A DNA stretch of 64,000 nucleotides, taken from the NCBI GenBank assembly GCA_041659685.1, contig JBAZXV010000004.1, positions 6,355 to 70,354 of the forward strand. The letters run 5' to 3'. Below are positions 12,033-59,361 of this stretch, in pieces. Numbering within the stretch: the first letter of the stretch is position 1; each line of letters begins with the position of its first letter. The position numbers were made by a program, and so were the translations under genes. The DNA is from Parcubacteria group bacterium (GTDB lineage Bacteria; Patescibacteriota; Minisyncoccia; Moranbacterales; UBA11712). The notes beneath the pieces were generated by a model, which was not told the DNA's origin, ran no database searches, and saw only the letters and a program-made list of their open reading frames with translations.

Positions 12033-13637
12033 GTGAGCAAACTTGCCCCGTTAGAAAATTCTTCAAAACAATCATATCAATTTCGCGAAGTCGAAAATTT
12101 TTCAGGCGAAAAAAAAGAACCGAAGGGAGGTTTTTTGACGGGGTCTAAGATATTTTTCATATTGTCTCTTTGCTTTTTAATCGGAATTTTTTTGGCGTCC
12201 TTTTTTAGAATTGAAAAATATTTTGTTTTGATTCTTGTTGTTGCGGGGATAACTCTGTTTGTCATAAATTATAAAAACAAGAGAATGATAGTCGCGAGTG
12301 CGGCAGTTTTGTTTTTGGCGCTCGGAATTTGGCGGACAAATATATCGCTCGATTTGGCGAGAAGTAACTTAAGCAATCAAAAACTGGGGCCGGTTGAATT
12401 TTCCGGAATAGTGTCAAAGGAGCCGGAAACGGATGAAAAATATCAAAAGATCATTGTCGAGGGCGAGGAAAGAAACAAAATACTCATAAATTCAGATATT
12501 TATCCGGAGTATCAATATGGAGATCAGCTGAAAATTCAATGCAACTTGGAGGAGCCGAAAAATTATGAAGATTCAAATTTTGACTATCAAATGTATTTGG
12601 CAAAAGATGGAATATACCGGATTTGCAAAAAAGCGCAGATAGCCGCAGTCGCCAAAAACAGGGGAAACAGATTCTACGCGGCAGTTTTGGCCGCCAAAAA
12701 CAAATTTGAGGAAAGAGTTTCCGCGATTTTTCCCGATCCGGAAGGGGCATATCTCAAGGGGCTCATTCTTGGCGGGAGCAAGCGGATGACAAAAGATCTC
12801 AGTGACGCTTTTTCGAAAACAGGGACAACACATACGGTTGCGGTTTCGGGATATAACGTTACAATTATCGCCGCGTTTCTCATGTGGCTGGGAATCGCTT
12901 TCGGACTTTGGCGCCAGCAGGTTTTTTCTTTTGCGGTGCTTGGCATCGTTTTGTTTGTTTTGATGACGGGTGCGCCATCGTCGGCGGTGAGAGCGGGGAT
13001 TATGGGAGCACTTGTCATCTGGGCGATGAAGGAGGGGAGGCTGGCCAACTCCCAAAATGCGATTCTCTTTGCGGCCGCGGCAATGCTTGCGATAAATCCA
13101 CTCCTGCTCCGCTATGATGCGGGATTTCAGCTTTCATTTCTTGCGACTCTGGGAATCGTTTATCTCTCTCCCCTTCTCGAAAATTTTTTTTGGCGGGGGA
13201 GGGCCCCGAAGTTCATTCAGGAAACCGTCATTCTCACAATGGCCGCAACAATTTTCGTTTTGCCCGTGATTATGAACTCCTTTGAAAAAATTTCTTTGGT
13301 CTCCCCTGCCGCCAATTTTGTGATTTTACCGGCGATTCCGTATATAATGGGGACAGGATTCGCGGCGGGGGTAATCGGATTTATGTTCGTTCCGCTTGGG
13401 AAGCTTATTGGCTTTGTTCCCTATGTCCTTCTCAAATTTGAAATAGCGGCGGTTCAATGGCTGGCAAATCTTTCCTGGGCTTCGGTTGAAATAAAAAATT
13501 TCGATTGGAAATGGATAACGGTCTATTATGTTCTGCTCTTTGCCCTGATTTTCTATTTCAGACTCAGGCAAAAAGAGCGCAATAATAATATTGAAAAAAA
13601 TATAACCGATCAGCACTCTCTGCTACCATTACAATGA
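12033..13637 (+). CDS. comEC: ComEC/Rec2 competence channel protein, N-terminal (DUF4131 + competence domain) part; GTG start
   Basis: 534 aa polytopic membrane protein; ComEC motifs HTVAVSGYNVTIIAAF, LSFLATLGIV; no MBL domain in this ORF. Confidence 0.8.
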   Translation: MSKLAPLENSSKQSYQFREVENFSGEKKEPKGGFLTGSKIFFILSLCFLIGIFLASFFRIEKYFVLILVVAGITLFVINYKNKRMIVASAAVLFLALGIWRTNISLDLARSNLSNQKLGPVEFSGIVSKEPETDEKYQKIIVEGEERNKILINSDIYPEYQYGDQLKIQCNLEEPKNYEDSNFDYQMYLAKDGIYRICKKAQIAAVAKNRGNRFYAAVLAAKNKFEERVSAIFPDPEGAYLKGLILGGSKRMTKDLSDAFSKTGTTHTVAVSGYNVTIIAAFLMWLGIAFGLWRQQVFSFAVLGIVLFVLMTGAPSSAVRAGIMGALVIWAMKEGRLANSQNAILFAAAAMLAINPLLLRYDAGFQLSFLATLGIVYLSPLLENFFWRGRAPKFIQETVILTMAATIFVLPVIMNSFEKISLVSPAANFVILPAIPYIMGTGFAAGVIGFMFVPLGKLIGFVPYVLLKFEIAAVQWLANLSWASVEIKNFDWKWITVYYVLLFALIFYFRLRQKERNNNIEKNITDQHSLLPLQ

Positions 13638-41540: not shown

Positions 41541-43592
41541 ATGGAGGAAAAAATAAATCAAAAAAATAATCCCAAGTTCATTTTTGCGGTTTTGGCGTCG
41601 CTCGCTGTTATAGGGATACTCATTTTGGCTTTTCTCTGGACGCAAAGAATAACTCGAAGAGCGCCGGTTTCGGAAATCGAGCCGGTAAACAATCAAAAAG
41701 AGAAATTGACCGAAGTTAAAAAGTTCGCTTCGGAACAGGAATTTAAGGACTATCTTGAAAAAGCAAAAAATGTCTCGGTGTTTTCCAACGGAAGAGGCGG
41801 AGGATTAATGGAAATGAGCGCAAAAAGCACCGATAGCATCAACGTGCCCCAGGCAACCGGACTTGGTGCGGCGCCAAGCCGCGTTTCGGAAACGAACGTT
41901 CAGGTGGAAGGCATAGACGAACCGGACACAGTGAAAACAAACGGAAAGGAAATTTTTTTCTCGGTCGACAGGCCGGAAATAATGCCTCTTGACGACACCG
42001 CGGGGAGAACTGATGAATCAAGGGAACTATTTCCGCTGAGCCAGACCGGCGGGACGAAATCAATTGCAGCTTTCCCGCCAGAAAACTTAAAGGTGGACAG
42101 TAAAATAAACAGATCGGGAGATCTGCTCTTATCCGATAAGTATCTGATTGTCATTCCTTCCCAGCGATATTTTTGGTCTCAGGATTCCAGCCGGATATAC
42201 GGATACGACGCCTCGAATCCTGAAAATCCGAGAGAAATTTGGAATATGGAAATCAAGAAATCAAGTTCGATTGCCGGAGCGAGGTTTTACAAGGGGAAAA
42301 TATATTTGGCGATGAAAACTGATTTTTCCGAAAACGAATCCTGCCTTTTGGAGCCTCTAGCTCTGCAAGGCGTTCCGTTTTCCATAAAATGCACGGATAT
42401 TTACCGGCCTGCAACCGTAATTCCGGCTGAAGCAACTTATTCGACAGTGATCATAGATCCGGCTTCGGGAAAAATTGAAAAAAGCGTTTCCTTCGTAGGA
42501 TCAAGCGATTACACCGCTTCAACGGTTTATATGTCGCCTGAAGCTCTTTATGTCACTTATTATTTTCCCGGAGATTCAGTGAAAATTTTAGCTTCGTTTT
42601 TCTCGGAAAATGGAGACCTTGTGCCGGATTGGCTGGCTCAAAAACTGAAAAAGCTTGAAGGATACGACATTTCAAGCTCGGCCAAGATGACTGAAGTTTG
42701 GGAACTGATCGGACGGTTCCAGAATTCTCTTTCTGACGATGACCGAATGAGAATGCAAAACGAGATCTCAAACCGAATGGGAGATTTTCTCAAAAATCAT
42801 CGCCGCGATCTTGACAGTACGGGAATCGTAAAAATTGGCGCCGGCAGTCTGAATATCGAGGCGACTGGAAATGTTCCGGGAAAACTCCTTAATCAATTTT
42901 CTCTTGACGAATATCAGGGAGACCTCAGAGTCGCCACAACAGTCGGAGAGAATTTCCTTGGCTGGGGCCTGGGCGGAGCGCGCTCGAGCGAAACGGTGAA
43001 TGATGTCTATGTTCTCGGCGACAATATGAAAACGGAAGGTTCGGTTATAGATCTTGGGAAAGGCGAGCGGATATATTCCGTTCGGTTTATCGAAGACAAA
43101 GGTTATGTCGTGACCTTTAAGCAAGTCGATCCATTCTATGTTATTGATCTTTCCGATCCGATGAATCCGGAAAAAAAGGGCGAGCTCAAAATTCCGGGAT
43201 ATTCTTCCTATCTTCATCCGATCAGCAAAGAAAGGATCTTAGGAATCGGCGAAGAAGACAATCGGGTGAAGATATCTCTTTTCGACGTAAGTGTTCCGGC
43301 AAACCCGATCGAGATCGCAAAATATAATCTTAATGAATATTACTCCGAAATTTCCCAGACTCACCACGCTTTTCTTTTGGACGCAAAACATAAAATATTC
43401 TTTCTTCCAGGCGCAAAAGGAGGCTATGTTTTCTCCTATGCCGGCGATAAAATAAACCTGGCCAAAACAGTCTCAGAAAATCAAATCAAACGGGCGGTTT
43501 ATATAGACGACTATCTATATATGCTGGGGGATAACAAGCTTATTGTCTTGGATGAAAAGAATTGGGAAAAAACCGGCGATCTTGATTTATAA
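41541..43592 (+). CDS. large secreted/membrane-anchored protein, probably beta-propeller-domain family
   Basis: 683 aa; N-terminal TM; beta-rich; YVIDLSDPMNPEKKGELKIPGYSSYLHPI resembles the secreted beta-propeller domain family. Inferred. Confidence 0.4.
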   Translation: MEEKINQKNNPKFIFAVLASLAVIGILILAFLWTQRITRRAPVSEIEPVNNQKEKLTEVKKFASEQEFKDYLEKAKNVSVFSNGRGGGLMEMSAKSTDSINVPQATGLGAAPSRVSETNVQVEGIDEPDTVKTNGKEIFFSVDRPEIMPLDDTAGRTDESRELFPLSQTGGTKSIAAFPPENLKVDSKINRSGDLLLSDKYLIVIPSQRYFWSQDSSRIYGYDASNPENPREIWNMEIKKSSSIAGARFYKGKIYLAMKTDFSENESCLLEPLALQGVPFSIKCTDIYRPATVIPAEATYSTVIIDPASGKIEKSVSFVGSSDYTASTVYMSPEALYVTYYFPGDSVKILASFFSENGDLVPDWLAQKLKKLEGYDISSSAKMTEVWELIGRFQNSLSDDDRMRMQNEISNRMGDFLKNHRRDLDSTGIVKIGAGSLNIEATGNVPGKLLNQFSLDEYQGDLRVATTVGENFLGWGLGGARSSETVNDVYVLGDNMKTEGSVIDLGKGERIYSVRFIEDKGYVVTFKQVDPFYVIDLSDPMNPEKKGELKIPGYSSYLHPISKERILGIGEEDNRVKISLFDVSVPANPIEIAKYNLNEYYSEISQTHHAFLLDAKHKIFFLPGAKGGYVFSYAGDKINLAKTVSENQIKRAVYIDDYLYMLGDNKLIVLDEKNWEKTGDLDL

Positions 43593-47239: not shown

Positions 47240-47851
47240 TTATTCCAAACAGCAGTCCACCGCTTTTCGGACGAGTTCGCCGAGCTTTCCCATAAAACCT
47301 TTGTTTGAGTTTTTCGAATCGATATTTTCGGATTTTTTGTCGGATCCGGAAGCGCTTTGGGGAGATATTTTTTCCTGGTCGTGAATATTGACGGCTCCCT
47401 GGTCTATTTTCTTTATGTCATCCGTATTGATCAGTTTCATGTTGAGGCCCCAAAAGAGGGAATAGAGGTCGTAGGCTTTCTCAAAAAGCTCTTGAGCCTC
47501 TTTTTTGTTTCCCATCCCCTGCTGTTTCGTGCCGACTTCCATGAGCCGCATTGAGGCGGCGAGAAGATGTTTCGATATGCACCAGACTTCGCCTTCATAT
47601 TCCTTGATAATTTTCCGCAGAAGATCTCCGCGCATTTTTCGAACTTCCTGAAGGAGGTCATAATATTCCGGTTTTCCGGTCTTGGCGCCTGTAAAAAAGA
47701 AATGTTCCTCAATGCTCACCAGATTCATTATCGCGATAGACAAATCCTGGTCGGATGAAAGATCCATCTTGTCTTGTTTTTTCATTTCATCGACTTTTTC
47801 AATCAGTTCGTTGATTCTTTTGAGTTTGTCGTCGTTTTTTTCTTCAGACAT
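47240..47851 (-). CDS. hypothetical cytoplasmic protein
   Basis: ~200 aa; small hairpins (acattcgatgt, tgttggga/tcctaaca) in its 5' region. Confidence 0.4.
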   Translation of the reverse strand: MSEEKNDDKLKRINELIEKVDEMKKQDKMDLSSDQDLSIAIMNLVSIEEHFFFTGAKTGKPEYYDLLQEVRKMRGDLLRKIIKEYEGEVWCISKHLLAASMRLMEVGTKQQGMGNKKEAQELFEKAYDLYSLFWGLNMKLINTDDIKKIDQGAVNIHDQEKISPQSASGSDKKSENIDSKNSNKGFMGKLGELVRKAVDCCLE

Positions 47852-47907
47852 TTGCAAATTTCTTAACATCAAATGTTGGGAGCGTCCTAACATTCGATGT
47901 CAGGTTT

Positions 47908-48429
47908 TTAACAGGTAAAATAAAGAATAAGGCTGGCAAATATGAGGAGGGAAATCGGGAAGGCCATCTTTTGGCCTTTGAAATACGAGATATTTCCGTT
48001 TCTTTTTTTGAGATAAATGTGAAGAAATGCTCCGCCGGAGAATAAGACGCTTCCCAAAATTATCCCAAAAAGAAGCTTGTCAAAGCCGCAAAACGTATTC
48101 AGCGGGTGGCCTATTTTCCCCTTGAGCCATAAGGGGAGGAGAATGATGGTATAATAGCCGGTAAAAACCAAAATCTTGCGTCCTTTGAATCGGATATTCT
48201 TCCCGCCGAGCCAGTTGATTGTCCAAACCGACATTGAAACAATCAGCGCGCCGATCCAAAGCCCGGAAATTGAATCGTCAATGCCGAAATATTCCGCCAA
48301 ACCGAGCCCTGCTCCGACTGCCACAGTGCAGACGGGGCAGACGGCGAACGCTGATTTGGCGATTAGCGCTGATAGCACAATACAGCTGGAAATTATGTAT
48401 TTTTTGTTTGGCATATTATATAAGCTCAA
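47908..48429 (-). CDS. polytopic membrane protein with a CPVC motif after TM1
   Basis: 173 aa; ~5 TM helices; CPVC directly after the first TM; divergent from the Cys-rich secreted-protein array. Confidence 0.45.
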   Translation of the reverse strand: MSLYNMPNKKYIISSCIVLSALIAKSAFAVCPVCTVAVGAGLGLAEYFGIDDSISGLWIGALIVSMSVWTINWLGGKNIRFKGRKILVFTGYYTIILLPLWLKGKIGHPLNTFCGFDKLLFGIILGSVLFSGGAFLHIYLKKRNGNISYFKGQKMAFPISLLIFASLILYFTC

Positions 48430-48707: not shown

Positions 48708-50000
48708 ATGATTAATTTAAAAAGAAAGAGGTTTTTTGCGTCAGGGCGAAAGTGGATTTTCACTTTGGCTCTTTTTGTTTTGGTCTTTGCGGCGGCGAGC
48801 ATTGTGAAAGTCAAAGCCGGAACGGAAAATAACGCTTCAGGATGGCTTTGGGGAGGGGGGACAGAATCGGATGGTTCTGCTCCGTATGACGGAACCAATT
48901 CTAATGTCCGCTGGATTAGCATGAACAGCGTAAACACTTCTTCGCCGGTTGATTATGGAGTCAATATTCCAGGCTCCGATGGTCCTGTTACCGGTTACGC
49001 TTGGAGCGGCGGAGATGATTCAGGCCCGGGGCTTGGCTGGATCGATTTCAATCCTCAGGATCATTGCACGACGGGCGCGCCGGGAGCCGGACAATACAAA
49101 GCCCTGAGTTGCGCATTGCCCGCTGGCAGCAGCGGCAGTCCTGGAGTATCCCGCTCCGGCGATAAATTGGTTGGATGGGCGAGAATCGTTGGGATTGCCC
49201 AAGAAAGCGCGAATAACAACAGCGGGGGTTGGTCAGGTTGGGTTCACATGAACGGCAATTATGGGGTTGATTTAGCGAAAATGGTCGGAGATACCGGACC
49301 CAAACCCTTGGCGGAAATGACTTTTGCCACGGCGGGAGGCGATGAACTAGGATGGATTGATTTTTCCGGGGCGAAATACACCCCTGTGTGTTCTGTTGCG
49401 TCAGTCACTCCCACGCCGCCGGTCTATCTCAAGGAACCTGCAAACAAATGTCAGCCTGTTACCGTCACACTGAAAGATGTTTCAGAGAGCAAAACGATCA
49501 ATTTTGCCGTCGATCCCGCCGGAGTAGTGAAGCTTTCCAAAAACTCTGACTGTTCGAGTCCGTCAGATGGATTTTCATTGGCCATACCGGATAACAATCC
49601 TCACAAAGTATATGTTTCTGCCAACAATTTTTCTTCCGATGCTACTGCTGATGTGGAGATAAGCGGTGACTGCGGAAGCTCAACAGAGGAAGTTCGGGTG
49701 ATAAAAACGCCTGCCTGCACGCTGAACTGTCCGAGTGAAATAACGCTTTCTACCAGCGAAACTAAATCCGTCAAATCAGAAATTTCCGCATCGGGTGATT
49801 CGGAATGCGCATCTCTTGTGACCTGTTCTGAATCAGGCACTGACTCCGAGGGAAATATCGATGTCAGCAGTAGTTGCGATGTGTCGGAAACAGGAAATCT
49901 CAGGTATGGATCTTCTGAGCTGAAAGCAACTGCCGGGTCCGGATCGTGCACTTCGCCAATAAGCATCAAGGGTCTGGGTTGGATCGAAACGAACCCGTAA
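48708..50000 (+). CDS. large secreted GW-repeat, Cys-rich protein ending in GLGWIETNP
   Basis: N-terminal TM (MINLKRKRFFASGRKWIFTLALFVLVFAAA); repeated motifs SGWLWGGG, GYAWSGGDDSGPGLGWIDFN, ELGWIDFSG; C-terminal GWIETNP shared with 55100-56173. The track start 48495 lies inside H6, so the ATG at 48708 is preferred. Confidence 0.6.
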   Translation: MINLKRKRFFASGRKWIFTLALFVLVFAAASIVKVKAGTENNASGWLWGGGTESDGSAPYDGTNSNVRWISMNSVNTSSPVDYGVNIPGSDGPVTGYAWSGGDDSGPGLGWIDFNPQDHCTTGAPGAGQYKALSCALPAGSSGSPGVSRSGDKLVGWARIVGIAQESANNNSGGWSGWVHMNGNYGVDLAKMVGDTGPKPLAEMTFATAGGDELGWIDFSGAKYTPVCSVASVTPTPPVYLKEPANKCQPVTVTLKDVSESKTINFAVDPAGVVKLSKNSDCSSPSDGFSLAIPDNNPHKVYVSANNFSSDATADVEISGDCGSSTEEVRVIKTPACTLNCPSEITLSTSETKSVKSEISASGDSECASLVTCSESGTDSEGNIDVSSSCDVSETGNLRYGSSELKATAGSGSCTSPISIKGLGWIETNP

Positions 50001-50056
50001 TTCGGTATTTTGTATCTAGCACGTAGTGTTTCATATAAATTTTGATTTTTCACTAA

Positions 50057-50542
50057 ATGAATCAAAAAACCAAAAAAAACCTCACCCACTGGCTTTCCGT
50101 GATTGTCATTGGAATTGCCTTGGGTTTCGCAATCCAGTTCGTGAAGGCCTGGACCGAACCGAGCGCGACGCCCCCCAACGGAAATCTCGGCGCGCCGATC
50201 AATACGGGAGCACAAAATCAGACCAAATCCGGTGGGATTACAGCTTCTACTCTATCTGCGACGACCGTGACAGGAACAACCCAGCTTTGCATAGGGACGG
50301 ATTGTCGCACTTCCTGGCCAAGCGGATCATCAACCACAACTACGGCAACTACAACCACACCTCCGGCTCCGACAATATACCAATGTCCGGATGACTTTTG
50401 CGCCAGAAGTTGTGGTGGCTCGTGTCTGGGACAAGTTAGTTCTTCATCGACGTGTGGAAGCTATTGGTGCTCGTATGATGGTGTTTGCGGCGGCGGCGGC
50501 GTTGGTGAGGCTCCCCCCACGAGGTCTTGTACGCCGATATAA
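50057..50542 (+). CDS. family A protein A1 (signal anchor + AWTEPSATPPNGNLGAPINTG module + Thr-rich linker + Cys-rich C-terminus)
   Basis: MNQKTKKNLTHWLSVIVIGIALGFAIQFVKAWTEPSATPPNGNLGAPINTG; 10 Cys in the C-terminal 70 aa. Confidence 0.6.
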   Translation: MNQKTKKNLTHWLSVIVIGIALGFAIQFVKAWTEPSATPPNGNLGAPINTGAQNQTKSGGITASTLSATTVTGTTQLCIGTDCRTSWPSGSSTTTTATTTTPPAPTIYQCPDDFCARSCGGSCLGQVSSSSTCGSYWCSYDGVCGGGGVGEAPPTRSCTPI

Positions 50543-50588
50543 TCTGCCTTTCAATTGATTAATAATACAAATTAACTCATAGACAAAT

Positions 50589-51059
50589 ATGAACAATTTT
50601 GAAAAATTCACCCTCGGCGCCATCAGTGTTTTGTTTGTGATCGTGATCTTTTTCGGCATCGTTCTCTTCCGCCAGCAAGAATACATCAGCGCTATCTCGC
50701 CCAATGCAGTAAGCAACACTTTACTTTCATCGAAGAAAAAAAATCCTCCAAAAGTGCTTCAGATTTTTCCCGCAACAATTGAAAGTATCTCCGGAAATAA
50801 AATTACGGTTGATATAAAGTTGCCTGACTACTCAAAACCTCAAAATCCGGGCGGGGGAAGTGTTAGCTTTATTGACAAAAAGATAACGGTGAATACAAAC
50901 AGCAAGACTGTTTTTAATAAGAGAGCGCTCGCCGATTTGAAAGAAGGGGATGCGATCTCTGTCTCTTCCTATGATCCATGGCAGACAGCGGACGCTGTCG
51001 CGGCGGAAAATGTTGCCTATGTGGCGCAATTTTCTTCTTCGCAAAACGCTCCCAAATAA
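50589..51059 (+). CDS. family B protein B1 (bitopic, DUF5666-like 'DLKxGD' beta domain)
   Basis: N-terminal TM; ADLKEGDAISVSS resembles the B-family motif NDLKVGDDVNVYS. Confidence 0.5.
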   Translation: MNNFEKFTLGAISVLFVIVIFFGIVLFRQQEYISAISPNAVSNTLLSSKKKNPPKVLQIFPATIESISGNKITVDIKLPDYSKPQNPGGGSVSFIDKKITVNTNSKTVFNKRALADLKEGDAISVSSYDPWQTADAVAAENVAYVAQFSSSQNAPK

Positions 51060-51113
51060 TATTTTTTAAGGTTGAATCTTGGCGAGAAAAATAAAATCTT
51101 AAAGTTGATGTTT

Positions 51114-51656
51114 ATGACCAAAAAAAACCTCATCCACTGGCTCTCCGTGATTGTCATCGGAATCGCTCTGGGCTTTGCCATCCAGTTCGTGAAAGCTTGG
51201 ACTGAACCGAGCGCGACGCCCCCCAACGGAAATCTCGGCGCGCCGATCAATACAAGTATCAATGATCAAGTCAAGGGAAACGCAACACAGGGAAAAATTT
51301 CGGCAAAGGATTTTTGTCTCAACAGCGATCCGACGAAATGCTTGAGTACTGTGGGCGGTGGCTTTGGGGGCACTCCGAGCGGAACGATTGATGGAAGAAT
51401 CAGCACCTTAATATGGAGCGGTGGGGCGACAGCAGGTTTATCTAACAGCTGCACAGATGAACCCCCGGGATTCTGTCGGGGACTAACTCCGATGTGTGAA
51501 GGCGGTTGGACGGTGAAGCAAATAGGATGGGATAGTAGTGGTGGAGATAATCTGCCCTATTGTGATCATATTCCGGGTCTTGGTGTTTGCGATTGGGGCG
51601 GCCCTTCAGGCTGGGTTGGCTATACCGCTTATACCTATACCTGCGTCAAAGACTAA
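51114..51656 (+). CDS. family A protein A2
   Basis: MTKKNLIHWLSVIVIGIALGFAIQFVKAWTEPSATPPNGNLGAPINTS; the N-module is nearly identical to A1 at nucleotide level; a different Cys/Gly-rich C-terminus. Confidence 0.6.
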   Translation: MTKKNLIHWLSVIVIGIALGFAIQFVKAWTEPSATPPNGNLGAPINTSINDQVKGNATQGKISAKDFCLNSDPTKCLSTVGGGFGGTPSGTIDGRISTLIWSGGATAGLSNSCTDEPPGFCRGLTPMCEGGWTVKQIGWDSSGGDNLPYCDHIPGLGVCDWGGPSGWVGYTAYTYTCVKD

Positions 51657-51672
51657 ACACTAAAACAAAATT

Positions 51673-52176
51673 ATGAATCTTCCGGAAAATCAAGGATTCT
51701 TCTCGAAATCAAATGTAATCGCGGTTGTCGTTGCTCTTTTCGTGGGGTTGATTATCGGAAGTCTTGTTTTGGGGGTATATTTCAACCGCAAATTTGACCA
51801 ACTCAAAATCCAGCTGGTTGAACAAAAAAATGGGACTCAAAAAAGCGGATCAGCGGCGAATCCTTCAAGCGCAACGAAAGAACAATTTATAGGAGGAACC
51901 ATTGAAAAAATCGATGGGAGCACTCTTACTCTCAATTCCATTAGCGAGAAAAAGATTTATACAATCAAAGTCACGAATAATACCAAGGTAACCAAAAGAG
52001 AATTTTCGAAAGATACTTCTCCAAAAGATACCGGCGCCAGTCTTTTGGATCTCAAAGTGAAGGGCAGCGTGGCTATCGGCACATTTGAAAATTTGAGAGA
52101 TAAAACTGAATTCACGGCTGATGATATTTTCATCCAACTGTTTGATAATCCGACTTCCCAGGTTACGCCGAAATAA
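51673..52176 (+). CDS. family B protein B2
   Basis: N-terminal TM; LLDLKVKGSVAIGTF and TEFTADDIFIQ motifs. Confidence 0.5.
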   Translation: MNLPENQGFFSKSNVIAVVVALFVGLIIGSLVLGVYFNRKFDQLKIQLVEQKNGTQKSGSAANPSSATKEQFIGGTIEKIDGSTLTLNSISEKKIYTIKVTNNTKVTKREFSKDTSPKDTGASLLDLKVKGSVAIGTFENLRDKTEFTADDIFIQLFDNPTSQVTPK

Positions 52177-52316
52177 TTGATATCCTAAAGTATTTTAAAT
52201 AGATTTGCAAAAAAATAGCCTCAAAAGGGCTATTTTTTCTTGGATTTTGGTTTTGAGGTGGTTTTGAGGCATTTGGTGCCCCCGCACTAAATTTTCACAA
52301 GATGCGGGCAGATAGA

Positions 52317-52502
52317 TTATTTTTTCTTAGACTTTGACTTGGATTTGGTTTTGAGGCATTTGGTGCAGATTTTCAGATTTTTCCCGTCGATTTTTTTGGA
52401 TTGAAGGTTAATCGCCATAACTCTTTTTGTGGCGATATTGGAATGGGAGCGTTTTTGCGCGGACTTAGGACCGCGACCGCAGACTTGGCAAACTCTGGAC
52501 AT
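52317..52502 (-). CDS. rpmB: 50S ribosomal protein L28
   Basis: MSRVCQVCGRGPKSAQKRSHSNIATKRVMAINLQ is a classic L28; the track ORF is 18 codons longer, so the ATG at 52502 is preferred. Confidence 0.85.
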   Translation of the reverse strand: MSRVCQVCGRGPKSAQKRSHSNIATKRVMAINLQSKKIDGKNLKICTKCLKTKSKSKSKKK

Positions 52503-52505
52503 ATT

Positions 52506-52640
52506 TATTGACAGATTAAACGCAGAATTTGGACAGATTTTACGCAGATGACGCAAATTTGAATAAATCTGTGTTATCTGTGTTTAATCTTTGGCAAAAA
52601 TCTGTGTAAAATTTGTGCGTTCAGTTGCTTAATTAACCTA
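52506..52640. repeat. second copy of the cgcagatt/acgcagat/atctgtgt element (cf. 170-262)
   Basis: cagattaaacgcagaatttggacagattttacgcagatgacgcaaatttgaataaatctgtgttatctgtgtttaat...aaaatctgtgtaaaatttgtgcg. Confidence 0.5.
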
Positions 52641-52749
52641 TTCAGGGTAACATAAGAAAAGATTTTTTACAAGATTAGAGTATTAATTATCTAGGGCGAA
52701 GATAATAATTTCAGCAGTTGGTGCATGTTGAAGCTTGTGAAATAAAAAT

Positions 52750-53379
52750 ATGTTGACGTTTATCATAATAGTAATTGTATTCATATATTCCGTGATAATT
52801 CATGAGGTTTCTCACGGACTTGCAGCTCTTTGGCTTGGTGATCCGACCGCCAAATATATGGGTCGGCTGACGCTCAATCCAATCAGCCATGTCGATCCAA
52901 TCGGCTCGATTCTGGTTCCTCTTATCACTTTTTTTGCCGGCGGATTCATCTTCGGCTGGGCGAAACCTGTCCCGTATAATCCCTATAACCTGCGCGACCA
53001 AAAATACGGGCCGGCTCTTGTCGGTGCGGCAGGGCCGGTTTCAAACATACTTATTGCGTTGGTGTTCGGTTTTGTCCTCCGGGTTTTTCTTGTGACAGGC
53101 CAGGTTTCGGTTTCCGAAAGCGGGGTTATTTTTTCCGTTTTTTCCTATGCAATTTTAATCAATGTGCTTCTCGCTTTTTTCAATCTCATTCCTTTTCCGC
53201 CTCTTGACGGTTCAAAACTTCTTTTTGCCATTCTTCCAATCCGCGAGGAAACAAAGATGCAACTTGAACAATTCGGTCTGATTTTTCTTTTTATCCTCAT
53301 CTACGCCCTTTCGGGGCCAATCAGTATATTTCTTCATTTTATTCAGAGCTTTTTTTTCCGAGTCGTGGTCGGGATATAG
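52750..53379 (+). CDS. M50-family site-2 protease-like membrane metalloprotease
   Basis: HExxH in TM (VIIHEVSHGLAALWLGD); multi-TM; ~209 aa. Confidence 0.8.
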   Translation: MLTFIIIVIVFIYSVIIHEVSHGLAALWLGDPTAKYMGRLTLNPISHVDPIGSILVPLITFFAGGFIFGWAKPVPYNPYNLRDQKYGPALVGAAGPVSNILIALVFGFVLRVFLVTGQVSVSESGVIFSVFSYAILINVLLAFFNLIPFPPLDGSKLLFAILPIREETKMQLEQFGLIFLFILIYALSGPISIFLHFIQSFFFRVVVGI

Positions 53380-53545
53380 AACAGCGGGTCAGTTTCGGGA
53401 TATTGGCATCTATTTTTTAGTTATGGTATAATCATTGCAGATTGAAATCTTGAAATGGGGAAAAAAACAAAAAAATTGAAAAAGGGGTGTTTCCTGGTTT
53501 TTAATATCGGCGGTGTTTAACGCGCCGCTTTTTAATTGCAAAAAA

Positions 53546-54220
53546 ATGAAGAAAAAAACAAAGAATAACAGAGTGAGTCTTCGCCCAATTTTTTGGCTGG
53601 GAGTCTTGACGTTGGGATTATTGATTGGTATCTCCATTCAATTCACTCGCGCCTGGGTTGAGCCTTCTGCAACCGCGCCGGACGGGAATGTCGCCGCGCC
53701 AATAAATACGGGAGCGAACGAACAAGTGAAAACAGGAACGGCTTCTCAAAAAGCGGATATTTGCGTTGACGCTCACGGCACCGGAGACAAGAAATGTCTC
53801 AGCGACCTGGTGAGTTTCCCGGCCTGCACCCTTGCGGGAGGAATCCCGTCAACCGTCGGTTCCGCAACCATCTGTAAATTTGCCGGCGCGTCCTGTCCTT
53901 CGGGATGGAGCCAATATTTGAATTATACCGAAACAACCGCCAATACCTGCACGGGAGCGGGAAATTGCGCAACGAGTGTTACTACCGGACATCACGCGTT
54001 TGCGAATATAGATCCGGCAACCGAAGCGGGAACTTATCAAGACTGCACCTCTTCTTGGAATTCTTGTTGCTATACGACCTACAGTTGTCCTCCGGGAGTA
54101 TGGCACCCAATCGGAAGCTGGTGCGGGGCGTCGCCGGAATGCCATGGGTGCGGAGGCACTTCCTCCACACTAAAAACCTGCATGCCGAACATAAATTTTG
54201 TCGGGTGCACATCCAATTAA
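53546..54220 (+). CDS. family A protein A3
   Basis: ISIQFTRAWVEPSATAPDGNVAAPINTGANEQVKTG + conserved core DLVSFPACTLAGGIPSTVGSATICKFAGASCPSGWSQYLNYTETT..NIDPATEA shared with A4 and A5. Confidence 0.6.
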   Translation: MKKKTKNNRVSLRPIFWLGVLTLGLLIGISIQFTRAWVEPSATAPDGNVAAPINTGANEQVKTGTASQKADICVDAHGTGDKKCLSDLVSFPACTLAGGIPSTVGSATICKFAGASCPSGWSQYLNYTETTANTCTGAGNCATSVTTGHHAFANIDPATEAGTYQDCTSSWNSCCYTTYSCPPGVWHPIGSWCGASPECHGCGGTSSTLKTCMPNINFVGCTSN

Positions 54221-54237
54221 TTTTCAAAATTAAGATT

Positions 54238-55068
54238 ATGGAAAACAAAACAAAAAATATACTGATTGTGGCTTTGACCGTATTAATTATTGGTTTTTTA
54301 TTATACCAGCAAATAGCAATAGGAAAATTAAGCAAGGCGATAAAAGAAATCAGCAAATCGTCTAATAGTGCAAACCAGGATGACAATTCCAAAGGGAATC
54401 AGTTCATGGAGAAGGCTGTTAAAAGCACCATAGAGAACGGAACAAAAGACTTTACCGGGACAATTGTTTCGAAGGGGGAGAATTCGTTGAATATTGAGGG
54501 AAGTGTAGTTGACCTTTCAAAAATTTCGAATCTCTCGAAAGACGAACTTGAGCAAAGCGATAAATTGCCTAAAAACAAAAAACAATTCATCGTGAATGTG
54601 AATGAGAAAACCGAAATGCCAGTGGGACTGGGAACTCTGAAAATTGGCGATAATGTTCATGTTTTTTCAGAGGAATCTGTTTATGGTTCTGGCGCTGTTG
54701 TCGCTTCGAAAGTCTGGCTTCTGCCTGACTCAAAAGCCCTTAGCTCCAATACCGGAAATTATTTTGATACAGTTGAAAATATCGGCGGCGCGATAAAAGA
54801 AATCGGAAATAATTATTATGTAATCGAAGTTCAGTGGATCGACTATCCCAAAGATGGCAGCGCGGGAAATGTTGATCTGGCATCCGCGCCAAAAATAGTA
54901 AAAACATATAAAGTGTTAATAAACGACAAAACCGTTTTTTCAAAAAAAGGCAGGAATGACCTCAAAGTTGGTGACGATGTTAATGTTTATTCAGACAAAC
55001 CAGTCTTCTCTCTGGCTGAATTCACGGCGACAAAAATTGAAGAGTCGGTCCAGCCGCCCAAAGAATAA
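54238..55068 (+). CDS. family B protein B3 (two DUF5666-like repeats)
   Basis: MENKTKNILIVALTVLIIGFLLYQQ TM; LKIGDNVHVFSEE and NDLKVGDDVNVYS..FSLAEFTATKIEE. Confidence 0.55.
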   Translation: MENKTKNILIVALTVLIIGFLLYQQIAIGKLSKAIKEISKSSNSANQDDNSKGNQFMEKAVKSTIENGTKDFTGTIVSKGENSLNIEGSVVDLSKISNLSKDELEQSDKLPKNKKQFIVNVNEKTEMPVGLGTLKIGDNVHVFSEESVYGSGAVVASKVWLLPDSKALSSNTGNYFDTVENIGGAIKEIGNNYYVIEVQWIDYPKDGSAGNVDLASAPKIVKTYKVLINDKTVFSKKGRNDLKVGDDVNVYSDKPVFSLAEFTATKIEESVQPPKE

Positions 55069-55099
55069 AACCGGGTTATAGATTTTTTAAACATACTCT

Positions 55100-56173
55100 A
55101 TGAAAAACAAAAAAAACAAAGAAAATAATGTCAAAAAAATATTTCTTGTTGTTTTGCTGGCCATCGCAATTGGCTTAATTTCTCTGTTCACGGATTCGAA
55201 GACAAGAGCGGCTTTGGACGGGTGGGGAGCGGGAATTTGGAATAATTATATTGCGGGGCACGCGGAAAATGATTCCAGTATACCTCCGACAATCGGATGG
55301 CTGAAATCAAGTTCGAGCGTCAATGGCCCTTGTCTTAAGACTGCCGATAGCGCCGAATATGAAGTTTATTTTGAAAATACCGATTTGGGCGAAAATGTCC
55401 GTTACGTGAGCGGGAAGGCCTGGTTTGGTATCGGATCTCAATCTGATTCCGGAGCGGACTGCCAGGAAGATCTTCCTTCCTTAGGCTGGCTTAATTTTGG
55501 AGGCGATCCGGGATCATTTTGCAGCGGACAGGGTGATTGCCATGCTGCCAGATGGCATAAAACGGGAGGTGATGATTATACGGGATATCTTGACGGCTAT
55601 GCGAAAATAGAATCAATGGGAGACAGCGGCTGGATCAGGTTAAGAGGTGATAATAATGGCGAAAAATACAAGGTGATGATGGATAGCTCCGGTGTTCTTT
55701 CAGGATATGCGTGGAGTTCAGGGGAAGAGAATACTATTTCGGGAAATTCAGGGCTTGGATGGATAAAAATGGATGGGCTTCAAATTGCCGAATGTGATCT
55801 GACTTGCGTGCCTAAAAAACTTTGCCAGGGAAGTTCTTTTTCCGGAACAAGTTGCAGCGATTTTTGCAGTTACGGTTCCACTTGCGCTCCCGACCTCGAC
55901 GGAGAGACAAGTTTTACGAATTGGACTTGTACTCGTGGCTGCGGTTCGAAATCCTGCGAACCTGAAATAATTGTTCCTGAAAACGGAGTGTGCGGACCAG
56001 TTGACTATATATGCGATAGAAACGTTGATGAGAGCAAGCTCTGTGCCAGCGGCACAGCCTCGGTGCCGACATATTATGAAAAAACCGCTTCGTGGACTTG
56101 CGGCAATGACTGCGGCGAAAAAGTGACATGCAGCGCGGCAACTCAATGCGGATGGATCGAAACAAATCCCTAA
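55100..56173 (+). CDS. second large GW-repeat Cys-rich protein ending in CGWIETNP
   Basis: N-terminal TM; SLGWLNFGGDPG, SGWIRLRGDNNG, GYAWSSGEEN..GLGWIKMDG; C-terminal GWIETNP. Confidence 0.6.
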   Translation: MKNKKNKENNVKKIFLVVLLAIAIGLISLFTDSKTRAALDGWGAGIWNNYIAGHAENDSSIPPTIGWLKSSSSVNGPCLKTADSAEYEVYFENTDLGENVRYVSGKAWFGIGSQSDSGADCQEDLPSLGWLNFGGDPGSFCSGQGDCHAARWHKTGGDDYTGYLDGYAKIESMGDSGWIRLRGDNNGEKYKVMMDSSGVLSGYAWSSGEENTISGNSGLGWIKMDGLQIAECDLTCVPKKLCQGSSFSGTSCSDFCSYGSTCAPDLDGETSFTNWTCTRGCGSKSCEPEIIVPENGVCGPVDYICDRNVDESKLCASGTASVPTYYEKTASWTCGNDCGEKVTCSAATQCGWIETNP

Positions 56174-56236
56174 TGAGCCATATGGCGCATAACGCGAATA
56201 CATAATCCGGAGGAAGTTAGTTGTAATCAACAAGTT

Positions 56237-56968
56237 ATGAAAAAAAAGAAACGAGCGACAGCAAAAATTTATAATCGCCTATCTTTCTGGCTCGGGGTTA
56301 TGGTTCTTGGAATACTAGTCGGCGTTTCCATTCAATTTGGCCGCGCCTGGGTTGAGCCTTCTTCGATGAATCCGCCCGAAGGCAACATCGCCGCGCCGAT
56401 CAACACGGGGGCGGGCAAGCAGTTGAAAACGGGAACTGCGTCCAATCCGGCAGACATCTGCGTGGATAAGTTCGGAAATGGCGATGAAAAATGTCTGGGT
56501 GATCTGGTCACTTTTCCGGCCTGCACTATGGCAGGTGGCATGCCGATTACGGTTGGCTCAACCACTATTTGCAAATTCCCGGGAGCCAGCTGTCACGATA
56601 CAGAAGTTAATGGCGCCGTAGTTCACTGGATCCAATATTTGAATTATACCGAAACGACGGCACAAACTTGCACGGGAGCGGGCGGTTGCGGAACCAGTGC
56701 CACCAGTGGTTCTCACTTTTTCGACAATATTGACCCGGCAACGGAAGCGAAGCCGTATTATAGCGGCGAGATAAGAAATGTGACATGCGGTTGCGACAGT
56801 GACAGCGTCTGTTCGTATTATGTTTATCAAAATTGGGGGTCCGGTTGGCATTGGGGATGCGCGGGCTATAATCCTCCAGTATGTTGGAACTGTGATACCT
56901 GCGTGAAAAGCGACATTCCCAGTACCTGTAATTCGAATGTTACGCAAGTTGGATGCGTTCCAAATTAA
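56237..56968 (+). CDS. family A protein A4
   Basis: VSIQFGRAWVEPSSMNPPEGNIAAPINTGAGKQLKTG + the shared core DLVTFPACTMAGGMPITVGSTTICKFPGASC. Confidence 0.6.
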   Translation: MKKKKRATAKIYNRLSFWLGVMVLGILVGVSIQFGRAWVEPSSMNPPEGNIAAPINTGAGKQLKTGTASNPADICVDKFGNGDEKCLGDLVTFPACTMAGGMPITVGSTTICKFPGASCHDTEVNGAVVHWIQYLNYTETTAQTCTGAGGCGTSATSGSHFFDNIDPATEAKPYYSGEIRNVTCGCDSDSVCSYYVYQNWGSGWHWGCAGYNPPVCWNCDTCVKSDIPSTCNSNVTQVGCVPN

Positions 56969-56982
56969 TTTATATTTATTTT

Positions 56983-57819
56983 ATGGAAAATCACAAAAAA
57001 TACATTTATATAGCAATCGCCATTTTCTTTTTTTTGCTTACCGGATTGGTTTTGTTTCAGCAAAAGATGATTTCCAATTTAAATAGTAAAGTCGGGAAGA
57101 TTGGACAAGCTGGATCAGGCAATCAGGTCAACATGGATACGAGTAAGAAAACTATTGTAGCGGCCGTCAAAAAGACCATAACGGAAAACGCAAACTCGGT
57201 AGAGGGGATTATTCGGTCAAAAACGGAAAATTCATTTGTGATTGATGCGGAGGTTGCCGATATCTCAAAGCTAGAAGGCCAAAAAGAAGAAAATTTAATT
57301 AAAGGAGATTCTTTGCCAAAAATAAAAAAAAGCTTCACCGTGGTCGTAAACGATCAAACCCATTTTCCTGACATAGGAAAGATCGGTTTCAAGCAAATTC
57401 CAGTCGGAGTGAAAGTTAGAGTGATGTGCGGTCAATCAGTCTATATTTCTGACAATCTGACAGCGTCCGAGATATATATTCTCACAAAGCTGAATATCCC
57501 TCCCTCAGAATATATCAAGCAGGAAAAAGATATTGCCGGCAAAATAACTGAAATTAATGAAAAATATCTCAAAATTGAAGTTAATTGGCTGGTTTATTCA
57601 AAAGATGTTGAGCCAAATAGGGAAAAATTTTGGGAGAATCCGACAGTGACTAAGGAATATAAGGTTAATATCGATGATAAAACCATCTTCCAAGGTGACC
57701 GGAACAGCCTCAAGGTTAATGACGTGGTTAAAGCTTTTTCAGCAACGCCGACCTTTTCTTTGACTGAGTTTACTGCGACGAAGATTGAGTGGCCGGTTCA
57801 AATGACGACGGCTGAATAG
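56983..57819 (+). CDS. family B protein B4
   Basis: MENHKKYIYIAIAIFFFLLTGLVLFQQ; NSLKVNDVVKAFS..FSLTEFTATKIEWPVQ. Confidence 0.55.
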   Translation: MENHKKYIYIAIAIFFFLLTGLVLFQQKMISNLNSKVGKIGQAGSGNQVNMDTSKKTIVAAVKKTITENANSVEGIIRSKTENSFVIDAEVADISKLEGQKEENLIKGDSLPKIKKSFTVVVNDQTHFPDIGKIGFKQIPVGVKVRVMCGQSVYISDNLTASEIYILTKLNIPPSEYIKQEKDIAGKITEINEKYLKIEVNWLVYSKDVEPNREKFWENPTVTKEYKVNIDDKTIFQGDRNSLKVNDVVKAFSATPTFSLTEFTATKIEWPVQMTTAE

Positions 57820-57868
57820 AGAGAAAATTCCATGTTTTTAGAAATAATTACTCCTAACATTAAGTATT

Positions 57869-58525
57869 ATGAAAAGAAAAATAAAAAATATAAAATTCCA
57901 CCAAAAGATTACTTTTTGGGTCAGCGTCCTGTTTCTTGGAATACTGGTCGGCGTTTCCATTCAATTCGGCCGCGCTTGGGTTGAGCCTTCCGGAACTCCT
58001 CCGGACGGAAATATCGCCGCGCCAATCAACACGGGGGCGGGCAAGCAAGTCAAAGAAGGAGATATTTGCACCACTGTAACTGGAACGGAGATATGCCTTA
58101 GCGGAGTCGTGAGTTTTCCAACTTGCACTCTCGCGGGCGGCGTTCCGACAACAGTTGGAACAGCGACAATTTGCAAATTCCCCGGCGCCTCATGCCCCTC
58201 AGGATGGAGACAATATTTGAATTATACCGAAACTGCGCCTCGCACTTGCACCGGTGGGGGCAGTTGCGGAACCAGCGTCACGAGCGGATCTCATTCTTTC
58301 GCCAATATTGATCCGGCAACGGAAGCCAGAAGCTATAGTGACGGATCAACCGAATCATTCTCATGCGGATGTTCTTCTTGTTGCACGGGTATGTGCAGCG
58401 GACCGAATGGCTGGATTGTTTGCTGTGGATATGACACTTGCGGCTGCAGTACTTGTTCCCGTTGCGTGGCTACTCCTCGGACTTGTTTGCCGAGTGTCAG
58501 TTTTGCCGGATGCGTCACTAATTAA
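57869..58525 (+). CDS. family A protein A5
   Basis: VSIQFGRAWVEPSGTPPDGNIAAPINTGAGKQVKEGD + the shared core; its Cys-rich tail differs from A3 and A4. Confidence 0.6.
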   Translation: MKRKIKNIKFHQKITFWVSVLFLGILVGVSIQFGRAWVEPSGTPPDGNIAAPINTGAGKQVKEGDICTTVTGTEICLSGVVSFPTCTLAGGVPTTVGTATICKFPGASCPSGWRQYLNYTETAPRTCTGGGSCGTSVTSGSHSFANIDPATEARSYSDGSTESFSCGCSSCCTGMCSGPNGWIVCCGYDTCGCSTCSRCVATPRTCLPSVSFAGCVTN

Positions 58526-58539
58526 ATATTTTTATACAT

Positions 58540-59361
58540 ATGGAAAATCGAACGAAATTCATTATTGTAATTGCCCTTGGAATAACTTTAGTCTTAATCG
58601 GCATCTTATTCGCTTATCAGCAAAAAACGATAACGAATCTGAAAAACGAAGTGAGTGGAATAAAAAAAGACACTTTAAACGATCAGAAAGCGGCCTTAAG
58701 CAGTCCATTTTCAGTAAAAGCTGTTCAAAATACGATAACTGACAATACGAGAAAAATAAAGGGGGTGATAACGGCCAAGAATGAAAATTTGCTTGATGTT
58801 GAAGCAGAAATAGTTGATTTCTCGAAGCTTCCGATGTTAAAAGAGGAAAGCCTGCTGGGGAGTGAAAATTCCCTTCCAAAGATAAAGAAAGACTACAAGG
58901 TGGCAGTCAATGACAAAACCCAATATCCATCAATGGAATATGAAAATTTGTCCGTCGGCATGAAAGTCTCCGTGACTTCGGATGAGCTGGTTTACAAAAG
59001 TGATGATCTGACCGCATCTGAAATTATTATTCCAGTTGCTGTGAAGGCTCCTCTGGGGGATTTCTTGAAGGCAGAAAAAAAAATAAACGGGCAAGTTAAG
59101 GAAATGAATAATAAATACTTGATTGTCGAGGTGCATTGGATGGACTACTCAAAGGTGACTGATCCCAAGAATATAGATTTCGCTGCGGCACCGACAATAA
59201 TTAAAGAATATAAAATATTTATCAACAGCGACACGGTTTTCCCTAATGGAAAAAATGATTTGAAGACCGGGGATAATGTCACTGCCCATTCGGATAATCC
59301 GACATTCTCCGTTACGGAGTTCACGGCGACAAAAATTGAAGGGCCGATTCAGCCGCAATAA
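58540..59361 (+). CDS. family B protein B5
   Basis: MENRTKFIIVIALGITLVLIGILFAYQQ; NDLKTGDNVTAHS..FSVTEFTATKIEGPIQ. Confidence 0.55.
   Translation: MENRTKFIIVIALGITLVLIGILFAYQQKTITNLKNEVSGIKKDTLNDQKAALSSPFSVKAVQNTITDNTRKIKGVITAKNENLLDVEAEIVDFSKLPMLKEESLLGSENSLPKIKKDYKVAVNDKTQYPSMEYENLSVGMKVSVTSDELVYKSDDLTASEIIIPVAVKAPLGDFLKAEKKINGQVKEMNNKYLIVEVHWMDYSKVTDPKNIDFAAAPTIIKEYKIFINSDTVFPNGKNDLKTGDNVTAHSDNPTFSVTEFTATKIEGPIQPQ

Follow-up and report, generated by a model that had tools for sequence, protein, structure and literature searches.

Recurring X-A-B gene cassettes in a Patescibacteria genome: a large family of variable, cysteine-rich exported A proteins and a tentative link to surface fibres or adhesins

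Bacteria belonging to the candidate phyla radiation (CPR, Patescibacteria) account for a large share of bacterial diversity. Here, we analyzed a 64-kb stretch of DNA from a Parcubacteria group bacterium (the window), in which five genes for cysteine-rich exported proteins with a common N-terminal module (A1 to A5) are each followed by a gene for a membrane-anchored partner (B1 to B5). The ORF (open reading frame) list of the window was combined with independent gene calls on the source contig and with searches for related loci. The picture that we obtained is that the repeating unit is X-A-B and not A-B, that the A proteins belong to a very large, unnamed family that is restricted to CPR bacteria in the genomes sampled, and that the B proteins are membrane-anchored tandem OB folds on the outer face of the membrane. 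Judged from these sequence features, the locus may be a diversifying array of surface fibre or adhesin complexes built from X, A and B, a reading that we favor tentatively and at a little less than an even chance.

The N-module family and the X-A-B cassette

A six-frame scan of the window returned exactly six copies of the N-module, at 50057 (A1), 51114 (A2), 53546 (A3), 56237 (A4), 57869 (A5) and 11404 (A6, an orphan), with 20 invariant columns out of approximately 60, so that an earlier note on this DNA was right to call the module near-invariant. When 1.84 billion cluster representatives (50% clustering) were searched exhaustively with HMMER, 4026 reached E ≤ 1e-3 and 640 of these E ≤ 1e-10. 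The proteins are about 70 to 540 aa long, and for all but one of the 150 matches listed the module begins no later than residue 32. Every one of the genome loci with the module (33/33) stems from a metagenome-assembled genome (MAG) of Patescibacteria. The consensus of 200 members reads [YWHF]W..V...G...G...QF[VTAGS][RK]A↓W[TV]EP[TS]..[PA]P.GN..AP[IVL]NT....Q.K.G, the arrow marking the Ala-Trp junction. Neither Pfam (2025 copy) nor NCBIfam 20.0 holds a model for the module, in line with the statement of the earlier note that it carries no prepilin, lipobox or sortase-type signature. Literature searches with the motif strings and for CPR proteins of this kind gave nothing relevant, and a description of the family, its motif, the C-terminal tail of X or the X-A-B cassette was not found in the libraries and literature searched. 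A phage origin was considered and rejected on the grounds that the module was not found in the viral contigs of IMG/VR.

The part of the motif that follows the hydrophobic segment is kept in Moranbacteria, Yonathbacteria, Taylorbacteria, Kaiserbacteria, Nealsonbacteria and MAGs labelled Saccharibacteria, while signal peptide and C-terminal heads diverge completely. Retention across lineages of phylum level argues for selection on the motif. Within the window, the module DNA of A1 and A2 is 91% identical over 137 nt and the sequences downstream are unrelated; among A3 to A5, short segments of module DNA (58–79 nt) are 71–87% identical. The similarity of the module DNA next to unrelated heads suggests that heads have been replaced by recombination behind a constant 5′ region.

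The genetic environment of A genes was followed in 33 genome loci retrieved with the module profile and four metagenome loci retrieved with a B profile, in which all ORFs were scanned with hidden Markov models (HMMs) and phmmer. The order X-A-B recurs in L001, L003–L006, L011, L015 and L035–L037; furthermore, X adjoins A in L002, L009 and L016 and is located near A in L007, L012–L014, L018, L032, L039 and L042. In the majority of related loci the X gene precedes A, and in 10 of the 11 X-A pairs listed X is the upstream gene at a distance of 31–96 nt. Orthologues of X1 are found immediately 5′ of A in L001–L005 and L012, those of X2 5′ of A3-type A genes in L009, L011, L015, L035, L036 and L037, and the adjacency of X and A recurs in unrelated genomic neighbourhoods. 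In Moranbacteria-type relatives the gene order is constant, with two divergent genes (up1 and up2) followed by X, A, B, rpmB on the minus strand, a gene for an M50-family protease and rpsL; several of these genomes carry extra X-A-B units between the M50 gene and rpsL.

In the window itself the plus strand reads X1, A1, B1, A2, B2, [rpmB on the minus strand], M50, A3, B3, X2, A4, B4, A5, B5, rpsL, rpsG and fusA. All ten A and B genes start where the earlier note had placed them, according to both the ORF list and the independent gene calls. The longest mechanical ORFs of B3 (53905–55068) and B4 (56953–57819) reach back, in a different frame, into the A gene ahead of them, and the ATG starts at 54238 and 56983 coincide with the independent calls. 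The five A-B pairs that the earlier note had arranged in one tandem array of two-gene cassettes are thus real; the array is not contiguous, and the two-gene scheme overlooked the third partner, represented in the window by X1 and X2. The gene for ribosomal protein L28, rpmB (52317–52556, minus strand; Pfam Ribosomal_L28, E = 6.5e-12), a housekeeping gene, and that for the M50-family intramembrane metalloprotease (52750–53379, plus strand; 209 aa, Pfam Peptidase_M50, 53.4 bits) divide it into two blocks. A hairpin with a T-run 3′ of B2 (52210–52238) and a strong promoter-like site ahead of A3 (53403–53432), both of them pattern matches only, suggest that the array may comprise two transcription units. 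A direct repeat of 49 nt with 86% identity (52231–52279 and 52318–52366) lies at the same boundary; its first copy occupies the spacer between the B2 hairpin and rpmB, its second copy the 3′ end of rpmB, and it looks like the remnant of a partial duplication.

The M50 protease had been regarded as embedded in the array and as a candidate processing enzyme. The comparison of loci speaks against this. The genes for M50 and rpmB stay beside rpsL in the relatives, whichever side the cassettes occupy, rpmB holds the same position in L001, L003, L005, L009, L035 and L036, and M50 adjoins A genes in Moranbacteria-type loci and in one distant Yonathbacteria locus (L021) but was not found within 6–10 kb of A in L039, L040, L042 and most distant loci. 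Given this fixed place beside rpsL and their absence near A in most other lineages, the two genes are best treated as neighbours of the cassette and not as parts of it.

A B gene follows A in 19 of the 63 non-redundant A genes examined, essentially in the Moranbacteria-type clade. Outside this clade, the next gene after A is another A, a gene for an unrelated bitopic protein of small size or a housekeeping gene, and arrays of A without B are present in L023, L029, L016 and L008. A gene for a small bitopic membrane protein is inserted between X and A in L039 (9582–9977) and L042 (9661–9954). The same arrangement of small gene and A is seen in the window, where a bitopic protein with a charged, low-complexity ectodomain (10947–11300) is encoded directly 5′ of A6 (11404–11913, plus strand; 169 aa, 6 Cys), which is followed by comEC (12033–13637). 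In L012 (5634–6543), the orthologous pair of small gene and A6 sits between X1 and a B gene. Parts of the cassette therefore appear to move between genomic sites, the pair being located inside an X1-B cassette in one genome and beside comEC in the other.

Several loci showed individual features. In L023 (2751–11953), six tandem A paralogues of 262–605 aa have different C-terminal regions behind near-identical signal peptides, MLP[KR]KF.LLLIFSIILTLGLSISLGSLLAA↓WTAPAS, and a B or X gene was not detected in this 12-kb locus; L028 contains a similar pair. L032 (5875–12093), which belongs to a Pacebacteria MAG, contains an ORF for 2072 aa with a match to the N-module HMM (E ~2e-7) and with an X-like gene just upstream (E = 3e-12). 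Giant proteins may thus use the module too; the match is provisional, as a regular expression gave no clear motif near the start of the ORF. In L022 (9934–10950), from a MAG labelled Saccharibacteria, two genes with canonical prepilin sequences (..RGITLIE.. and ..KGFSLIE..) are located 3–4 kb downstream of A, and this is the sole locus with neighbours of the prepilin type.

Properties of the A, B and X proteins

The A proteins of the array, all encoded on the plus strand, comprise A1 (50057–50542; 161 aa; N-module with an HMM E-value of 3e-34), A2 (51114–51656; 180 aa), A3 (53546–54220; 224 aa), A4 (56237–56968; 243 aa) and A5 (57869–58525; 218 aa). Their richness in cysteine, as described in the earlier note, was confirmed: A1 to A6 contain 10, 8, 16, 16, 20 and 6 cysteines, respectively, all even numbers, and the B proteins have 0–1. 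In fact, the cysteine count is even in every A and X protein (6–20). CPR-enriched disulfide systems for secreted proteins, MdbA-like and VKOR, have been described (PMC6744442), which makes the formation of extracellular disulfides in these organisms plausible.

For the hydrophobic segment of A, which the earlier note took for a membrane anchor, the segment as such is evident and its anchoring role is doubtful. Among the 200 aligned members, position −1 relative to the invariant Trp is Ala in 198 and position −3 is V, T, A, G or S in 196; together with a basic n-region and a hydrophobic h-region, these are the hallmarks of Sec signal peptides. Homologues from Yonath-, Taylor-, Kaiser- and Nealsonbacteria and from MAGs labelled Saccharibacteria have a plain Sec signal peptide with a short n-region and an h-region of 15–18 residues that ends in ..VSA, ..ASA, ..AFA, ..LAA or ..YGG, and the post-Trp motif is retained. 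Proteins from L024 and L033 lack the Trp, yet PP.GN..AP.N..Q.K.G follows directly after their signal peptide. Since the equivalent of the putative transmembrane helix is an ordinary Sec signal peptide with a small residue before Trp in distant relatives, the motif is probably situated at the mature N-terminus. We therefore consider it fairly probable, on the basis of sequence, that the hydrophobic segment of A is a signal peptide that is cut by signal peptidase I at or beside the Ala-Trp junction; alternatively, it may stay in place as a type II anchor. If cleavage occurs, the universal element of the family would be a motif of approximately 30 residues at the mature N-terminus, and what had been proposed as a novel processing site would most simply be a signal peptidase I site.

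The C-terminal heads differ as had been noted. A3, A4 and A5 share a common head with 59–60% identity, and A1, A2 and A6 each possess a different one, those of A1 and A2 being unique and rich in cysteine. In an AlphaFold2 model of A5, residues 7–36 form one helix, residues 37–65 are of low confidence and the head (residues ~85–218) is all-beta with a predicted local distance difference test score above 90. Foldseek retrieved no convincing relative of the A5 model from BFVD (best E 0.014, TM-score ~0.1), so a tail-fibre-tip or pilin fold cannot be assigned to the A3–A5 head, and a sequence search of the PDB with X, B and A profiles gave no match.

More was gained from relatives with the N-module. 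A Pfam census of 141 representatives, complemented by follow-up scans, detected Gly_rich_2 in 8 of 141 (best E = 5e-12), Collar in 4 of 141 (at or just below threshold), Shufflon_N in two (P0097 and P0122; 46.2 and 41.2 bits, cut-off 27.5), Lcl_C in two (sub-threshold) and Peptidase_S74 in one (P0160; 54.9 bits, cut-off 22). The two Shufflon_N members were picked by a sequence motif and then confirmed with Pfam; they match profile positions 203–279 of 324, that is the PilV shaft and not the pilin helix. A motif of the type GNVGIGTT.P..KLDV follows the module in many members, and longer homologues of the A3–A5 head have a tail-collar-like insertion between module and head. Fibres, tail fibres and pilus-tip adhesins are built from such modules, and no toxin family was encountered among the 141 relatives. 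The A proteins thus look like variable cell-surface binding proteins rather than toxins.

The B proteins are encoded on the plus strand at 50589–51059 (B1; 156 aa), 51673–52176 (B2; 167 aa), 54238–55068 (B3; 276 aa), 56983–57819 (B4; 278 aa) and 58540–59361 (B5; 273 aa). B1 and B2 consist of a transmembrane anchor and one OB-like domain, B3 and B4 of an anchor and two such domains, and B5 of a transmembrane helix (residues 3–38) and two OB-fold barrels. Anchor and domain number agree with the earlier description, but the assignment to DUF5666 (PF18914) stays below the gathering threshold of 27 bits for B1 (20.1), B2 (13.0) and B4 (21.2), and B3 and B5 do not match at all; the fold is OB-like. 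Precomputed PF18914 annotations exist for three B homologues (P0214, P0217 and P0221).

The A-head and B-ectodomain similarity matrices of 19 pairs correlate (Mantel r = 0.82, p = 2e-4), so that the co-variation of A and B reported earlier holds overall. Strict cognate pairing is not supported. In L001 and L003, B similarity is 0.49 and that of the A heads 0.11, and for B2 and the B protein of L012 the respective values are 0.27 and 0.06. It follows from these discordant pairs that B tracks the position of the cassette or the lineage at least as much as the type of head. Moreover, co-duplication of adjacent genes would lead to a correlation whatever the function.

X1 (48708–50000, plus strand; 430 aa, 12 Cys) and X2 (55100–56173, plus strand; 357 aa, 20 Cys) appear to be secreted partners with cleavable signal peptides. 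The N-domain of X is conserved and contains repeated aromatic, hairpin-like motifs (GWLWGG, SGYAWSENIGWISFN, GWARI, GGWxGWI and LGWIDFS; GYAWS...GWIDF in X1), to which a variable, cysteine-rich middle part is attached. All X proteins end in a W-x-E-x-x-P tail that is at most two residues away from the C-terminus, with W and E invariant and P nearly always present in 20 aligned sequences. The tail reads GW[IVT]ET[NA]P in close relatives (GWIETNP-COOH in X1, CGWIETNP-COOH in X2) and [DNA]W[RK]EV[SA]P in more distant X proteins. Among all ORFs and proteins examined it is specific to X, except for P0011, an A-type protein of 119 aa from a metagenome contig of 1074 bp, which has a full N-module and the C-terminus AGWIETNP; it may be either a natural fusion of modules or an assembly artefact. 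Pfam, NCBIfam and the PDB contain no match for X.

Other genes of the window comprise housekeeping genes (for FtsA, FtsZ, NrdD, ComEC, LeuA and others) and a gene for a 683-aa protein (41541–43592, plus strand) with a match to Pfam Beta_propel (PF09826; E = 2.5e-104). Homologues bear names such as ‘Parcubacteria group bacterium’ and ‘Candidatus Moranbacteria’, in agreement with a CPR bacterium of the Parcubacteria/Moranbacteria type. The divergent genes up1 and up2 (47240–47893 and 47908–48429, both on the minus strand) flank the first cassette of eight or more related loci. The former encodes a soluble protein of 217 aa with the C-terminus KAVDCCLE, the latter a multi-pass membrane protein of 173 aa with the C-terminus YFTC and a CPVC motif where the first mature hydrophobic segment begins; neither has a Pfam or NCBIfam match. 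As a membrane protein with a CxxC motif encoded beside genes for cysteine-rich exported proteins, up2 could be a thiol-disulfide factor.

Proposed function and competing explanations

According to the reading that we favor, A would be exported via Sec and cut by signal peptidase I before the invariant Trp. Mature A would then begin with W[TV]EP[ST]..PP.GN..AP[IL]NT....Q.K.G, a constant ‘stem’ by which it could be docked or assembled at the cell surface and which would bear the interchangeable, disulfide-rich heads, with X as a secreted partner and B as a factor that assembles or holds A. Arrays would expand through tandem duplication and through the exchange of heads behind the constant 5′ region, and a single cell could thereby display several specificities of binding, which would plausibly serve to attach it to host cells or to substrates.

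A number of observations weigh against this proposal. A1 to A6 themselves have no match in Pfam or NCBIfam, and the fibre modules are present in relatives with the N-module and not in A1 to A6. As the A5 head is without structural relatives in the PDB and BFVD, the adhesin proposal depends on relatives that have only the N-module in common with the proteins of the window. Many lineages lack B beside A. In Moranbacteria-type proteins the hydrophobic segment shows a degree of conservation that is unusual in signal peptides; it consists of about 20 residues with Trp at both ends and has an i+4 stripe (V−17, G−13, G−9, Q−5 and A−1) that fits a stable helix-packing anchor, as does the single helix of the AlphaFold2 model. 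Homology of AWTEP with the repeats or the tail of X was considered and rejected, hhalign having aligned nothing but the basic N-termini, with a probability of 21%.

Among the other explanations, the one suggested by the earlier note is an effector/immunity or bacteriocin-type system, in which the heads would be toxins or antimicrobial cysteine-rich proteins secreted by means of the N-module and B would be the immunity protein or chaperone. It would account for small, secreted, cysteine-rich proteins with hypervariable heads behind a constant N-terminus, for the gene of a small membrane protein immediately downstream and for the correlation between A heads and B. Polymorphic toxin loci show C-terminal displacement, and head replacement behind a conserved 5′ region resembles this process. 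However, Pfam and NCBIfam show no toxin, immunity or known trafficking domain in the A, B and X proteins or among the 141 family members (PADLOC and immunity libraries were not searched), and the modules that can be recognized at C-termini in the family, Peptidase_S74, Shufflon_N, Collar, Gly_rich_2 and Lcl_C, are parts of fibres and adhesins. An immunity function does not suit B, an extracytoplasmic tandem OB fold without Cys, which stays similar where the A head has been replaced (L001/L003, B2/L012), is missing from A arrays in many lineages (L023, L029, L016 and L008) and would correlate with A merely as a co-duplicated neighbour. We consequently regard a toxin system as quite unlikely. 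Another idea, that A proteins span the membrane in type II orientation and that the neighbouring M50 site-2 protease cuts their transmembrane helix, with release of an N- or C-terminal fragment, appears highly improbable. The N-in/C-out topology, the small, helix-destabilizing residues of the segment (G, G, Q) and the position of the M50 gene inside the array, as well as beside A in L021, would suit such regulated intramembrane proteolysis, but the protease gene accompanies rpmB and rpsL, be it on one side of the cassettes or on the other, and is absent near A in most other lineages, the cytoplasmic tail of A amounts to only 8–16 basic residues without an effector domain, and the NCBIfam matches of the protease are generic (22.7 bits, cut-off for RseP 147).

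Two further explanations concern the N-module more directly. It could be the polymerization or processing signal, pilin-like or donor-strand-like, of a new CPR-specific filament or sorting system, with a filament that carries variable tips; the motif of A (W-x-E-P) and the tail of X (W-x-E-x-x-P) would then be two recognition elements of an undescribed surface-assembly system, either bound by one common machinery or recognizing one another. Pilin loci hold paralogues in tandem, each with a constant hydrophobic N-terminus and a variable C-domain bonded by disulfides, and the A genes share this appearance. The invariant tail of X is similar to W[TV]EP, with which mature A would begin, P0011 combines both, X adjoins A across several lineages, the hydrophobic segment is strongly conserved with its GxxxG-type stripe, and the low confidence of the module in the monomer model is what would be expected of a segment that folds on a partner. 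On the other hand, there is no prepilin motif (Gly−1/Glu+5) and no N_methyl match, an assembly ATPase, platform protein, sortase or dedicated peptidase is not encoded beside A in any locus examined, distant homologues have plain Sec signal peptides, module and X are not similar at profile level, and inspection of eleven X-A pairs revealed no residue-level covariation between X tail and A motif. We assign this explanation a low probability. X and A might, for example, assemble end to end or by strand complementation on a B scaffold, which would amount to a new appendage with exchangeable tips for host recognition by episymbionts. It is also rather unlikely that the A proteins are ordinary secreted paralogues, with the N-module as a signal peptide plus linker kept by descent or gene conversion and X, A and B as mere neighbours. 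The signal-peptide-like architecture with its −3/−1 rule, the similarity of module DNA in adjacent genes (91% for A1/A2, 71–87% among A3 to A5) and the frequent location of A among housekeeping genes are compatible with this explanation; it is at odds with a post-signal motif that persists across lineages while signal peptide and heads diverge, with the occurrence of this motif in 4026 representatives at 50% clustering and with X-A adjacency in unrelated neighbourhoods.

Should the proposed X-A-B binding complexes exist, X, A and B would be candidate determinants of host range in uncultivated episymbionts. Cultivated CPR bacteria live attached to other microbes; type IV pili aside, little is known of the ways in which they recognize and hold their partners (PMC6744442; PMC12206443; PMC11665869). 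The profile HMM of the motif provides a handle for cataloguing the family in metagenomes, and the WTEP... peptide is a target for metaproteomics.

Comparison with known systems

The locus was compared with four kinds of known systems. Cassettes of polymorphic toxins likewise combine a constant N-region with variable C-termini, tandem arrays and a co-varying small downstream gene; they differ in that the downstream protein of the A cassette is an extracytoplasmic OB fold and pairing is not strict. Delivery modules (LXG, WXG100, PAAR/Rhs, CdiA and the double-glycine leader) had no match at E ≤ 1 in Pfam and NCBIfam.

CPR cells rely on pili (PMC6744442), and type IV pilins have several traits of A, namely a basic N-terminus, a conserved hydrophobic helix of approximately 20 residues, a variable C-domain with disulfides and tandem paralogues. 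The N-modules read ..QF[VGT][RK]A↓W[TV]EP and have no Gly−1, Phe+1 or Glu+5, and the expression [KR]..G[FMIY][TS][LIV].E finds nothing in the window. Pfam gives no N_methyl or pilin match, the sole pilin model of NCBIfam to respond is UpsA on B5 (15.5 bits, cut-off 130), and PilB, PilC and PilD are found neither among the approximately 20 window ORFs scanned nor beside A in L039, L040 and L042. The ordinary Sec signal peptides of distant A homologues set the family apart from pilins as well.

The WxL/Csc clusters of Firmicutes, small gene clusters of monoderm bacteria, encode several exported proteins for which a non-covalent complex at the surface has been proposed, one of them anchored in the membrane and others with a short Trp motif (PMC10599100). 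Several exported proteins, one anchored partner and Trp motifs are also features of the X-A-B cassette, a likeness by analogy only, as the motifs of the cassette are instead W-x-E-P at the putative mature N-terminus and W-x-E-x-x-P at the C-terminus, and WxL, DUF916 and DUF3324 have no Pfam match in X, A or B. The locus thus fails the defining tests of type IV pilins, polymorphic toxins and WxL clusters.

Tail fibres with their chaperones and the PilV shufflon of R64 are the remaining systems. Tail fibres that work with a cognate chaperone have been described (PMC9608196; PMC10579305). Unlike tail fibres, A is a cellular protein with a predicted Sec signal and not part of a virion; the module was not found in IMG/VR. 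Pfam and NCBIfam contain no tail-fibre or pilin N-terminus to which the N-module is related, B is a membrane-anchored OB fold and not a chaperone of the Tfa type, an invertase or shufflon is not present, and the heads of A1 to A6 match none of the modules of these systems. What A shares with tail fibres and PilV is a constant N-terminal part, in their case for attachment, combined with exchangeable C-terminal domains, in their case for binding, and a small gene downstream; relatives of A moreover contain the same modules, Peptidase_S74, tail collar, Gly_rich_2 and the shaft of the PilV constant region. Variable surface adhesin loci as such are known, and it is the constant module and its partners X and B that are undescribed in the libraries and literature searched. 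The function of the X-A-B cassette may resemble pilin arrays and WxL/Csc clusters more loosely, and most of all the logic of a tail fibre with its chaperone or of a PilV adhesin.

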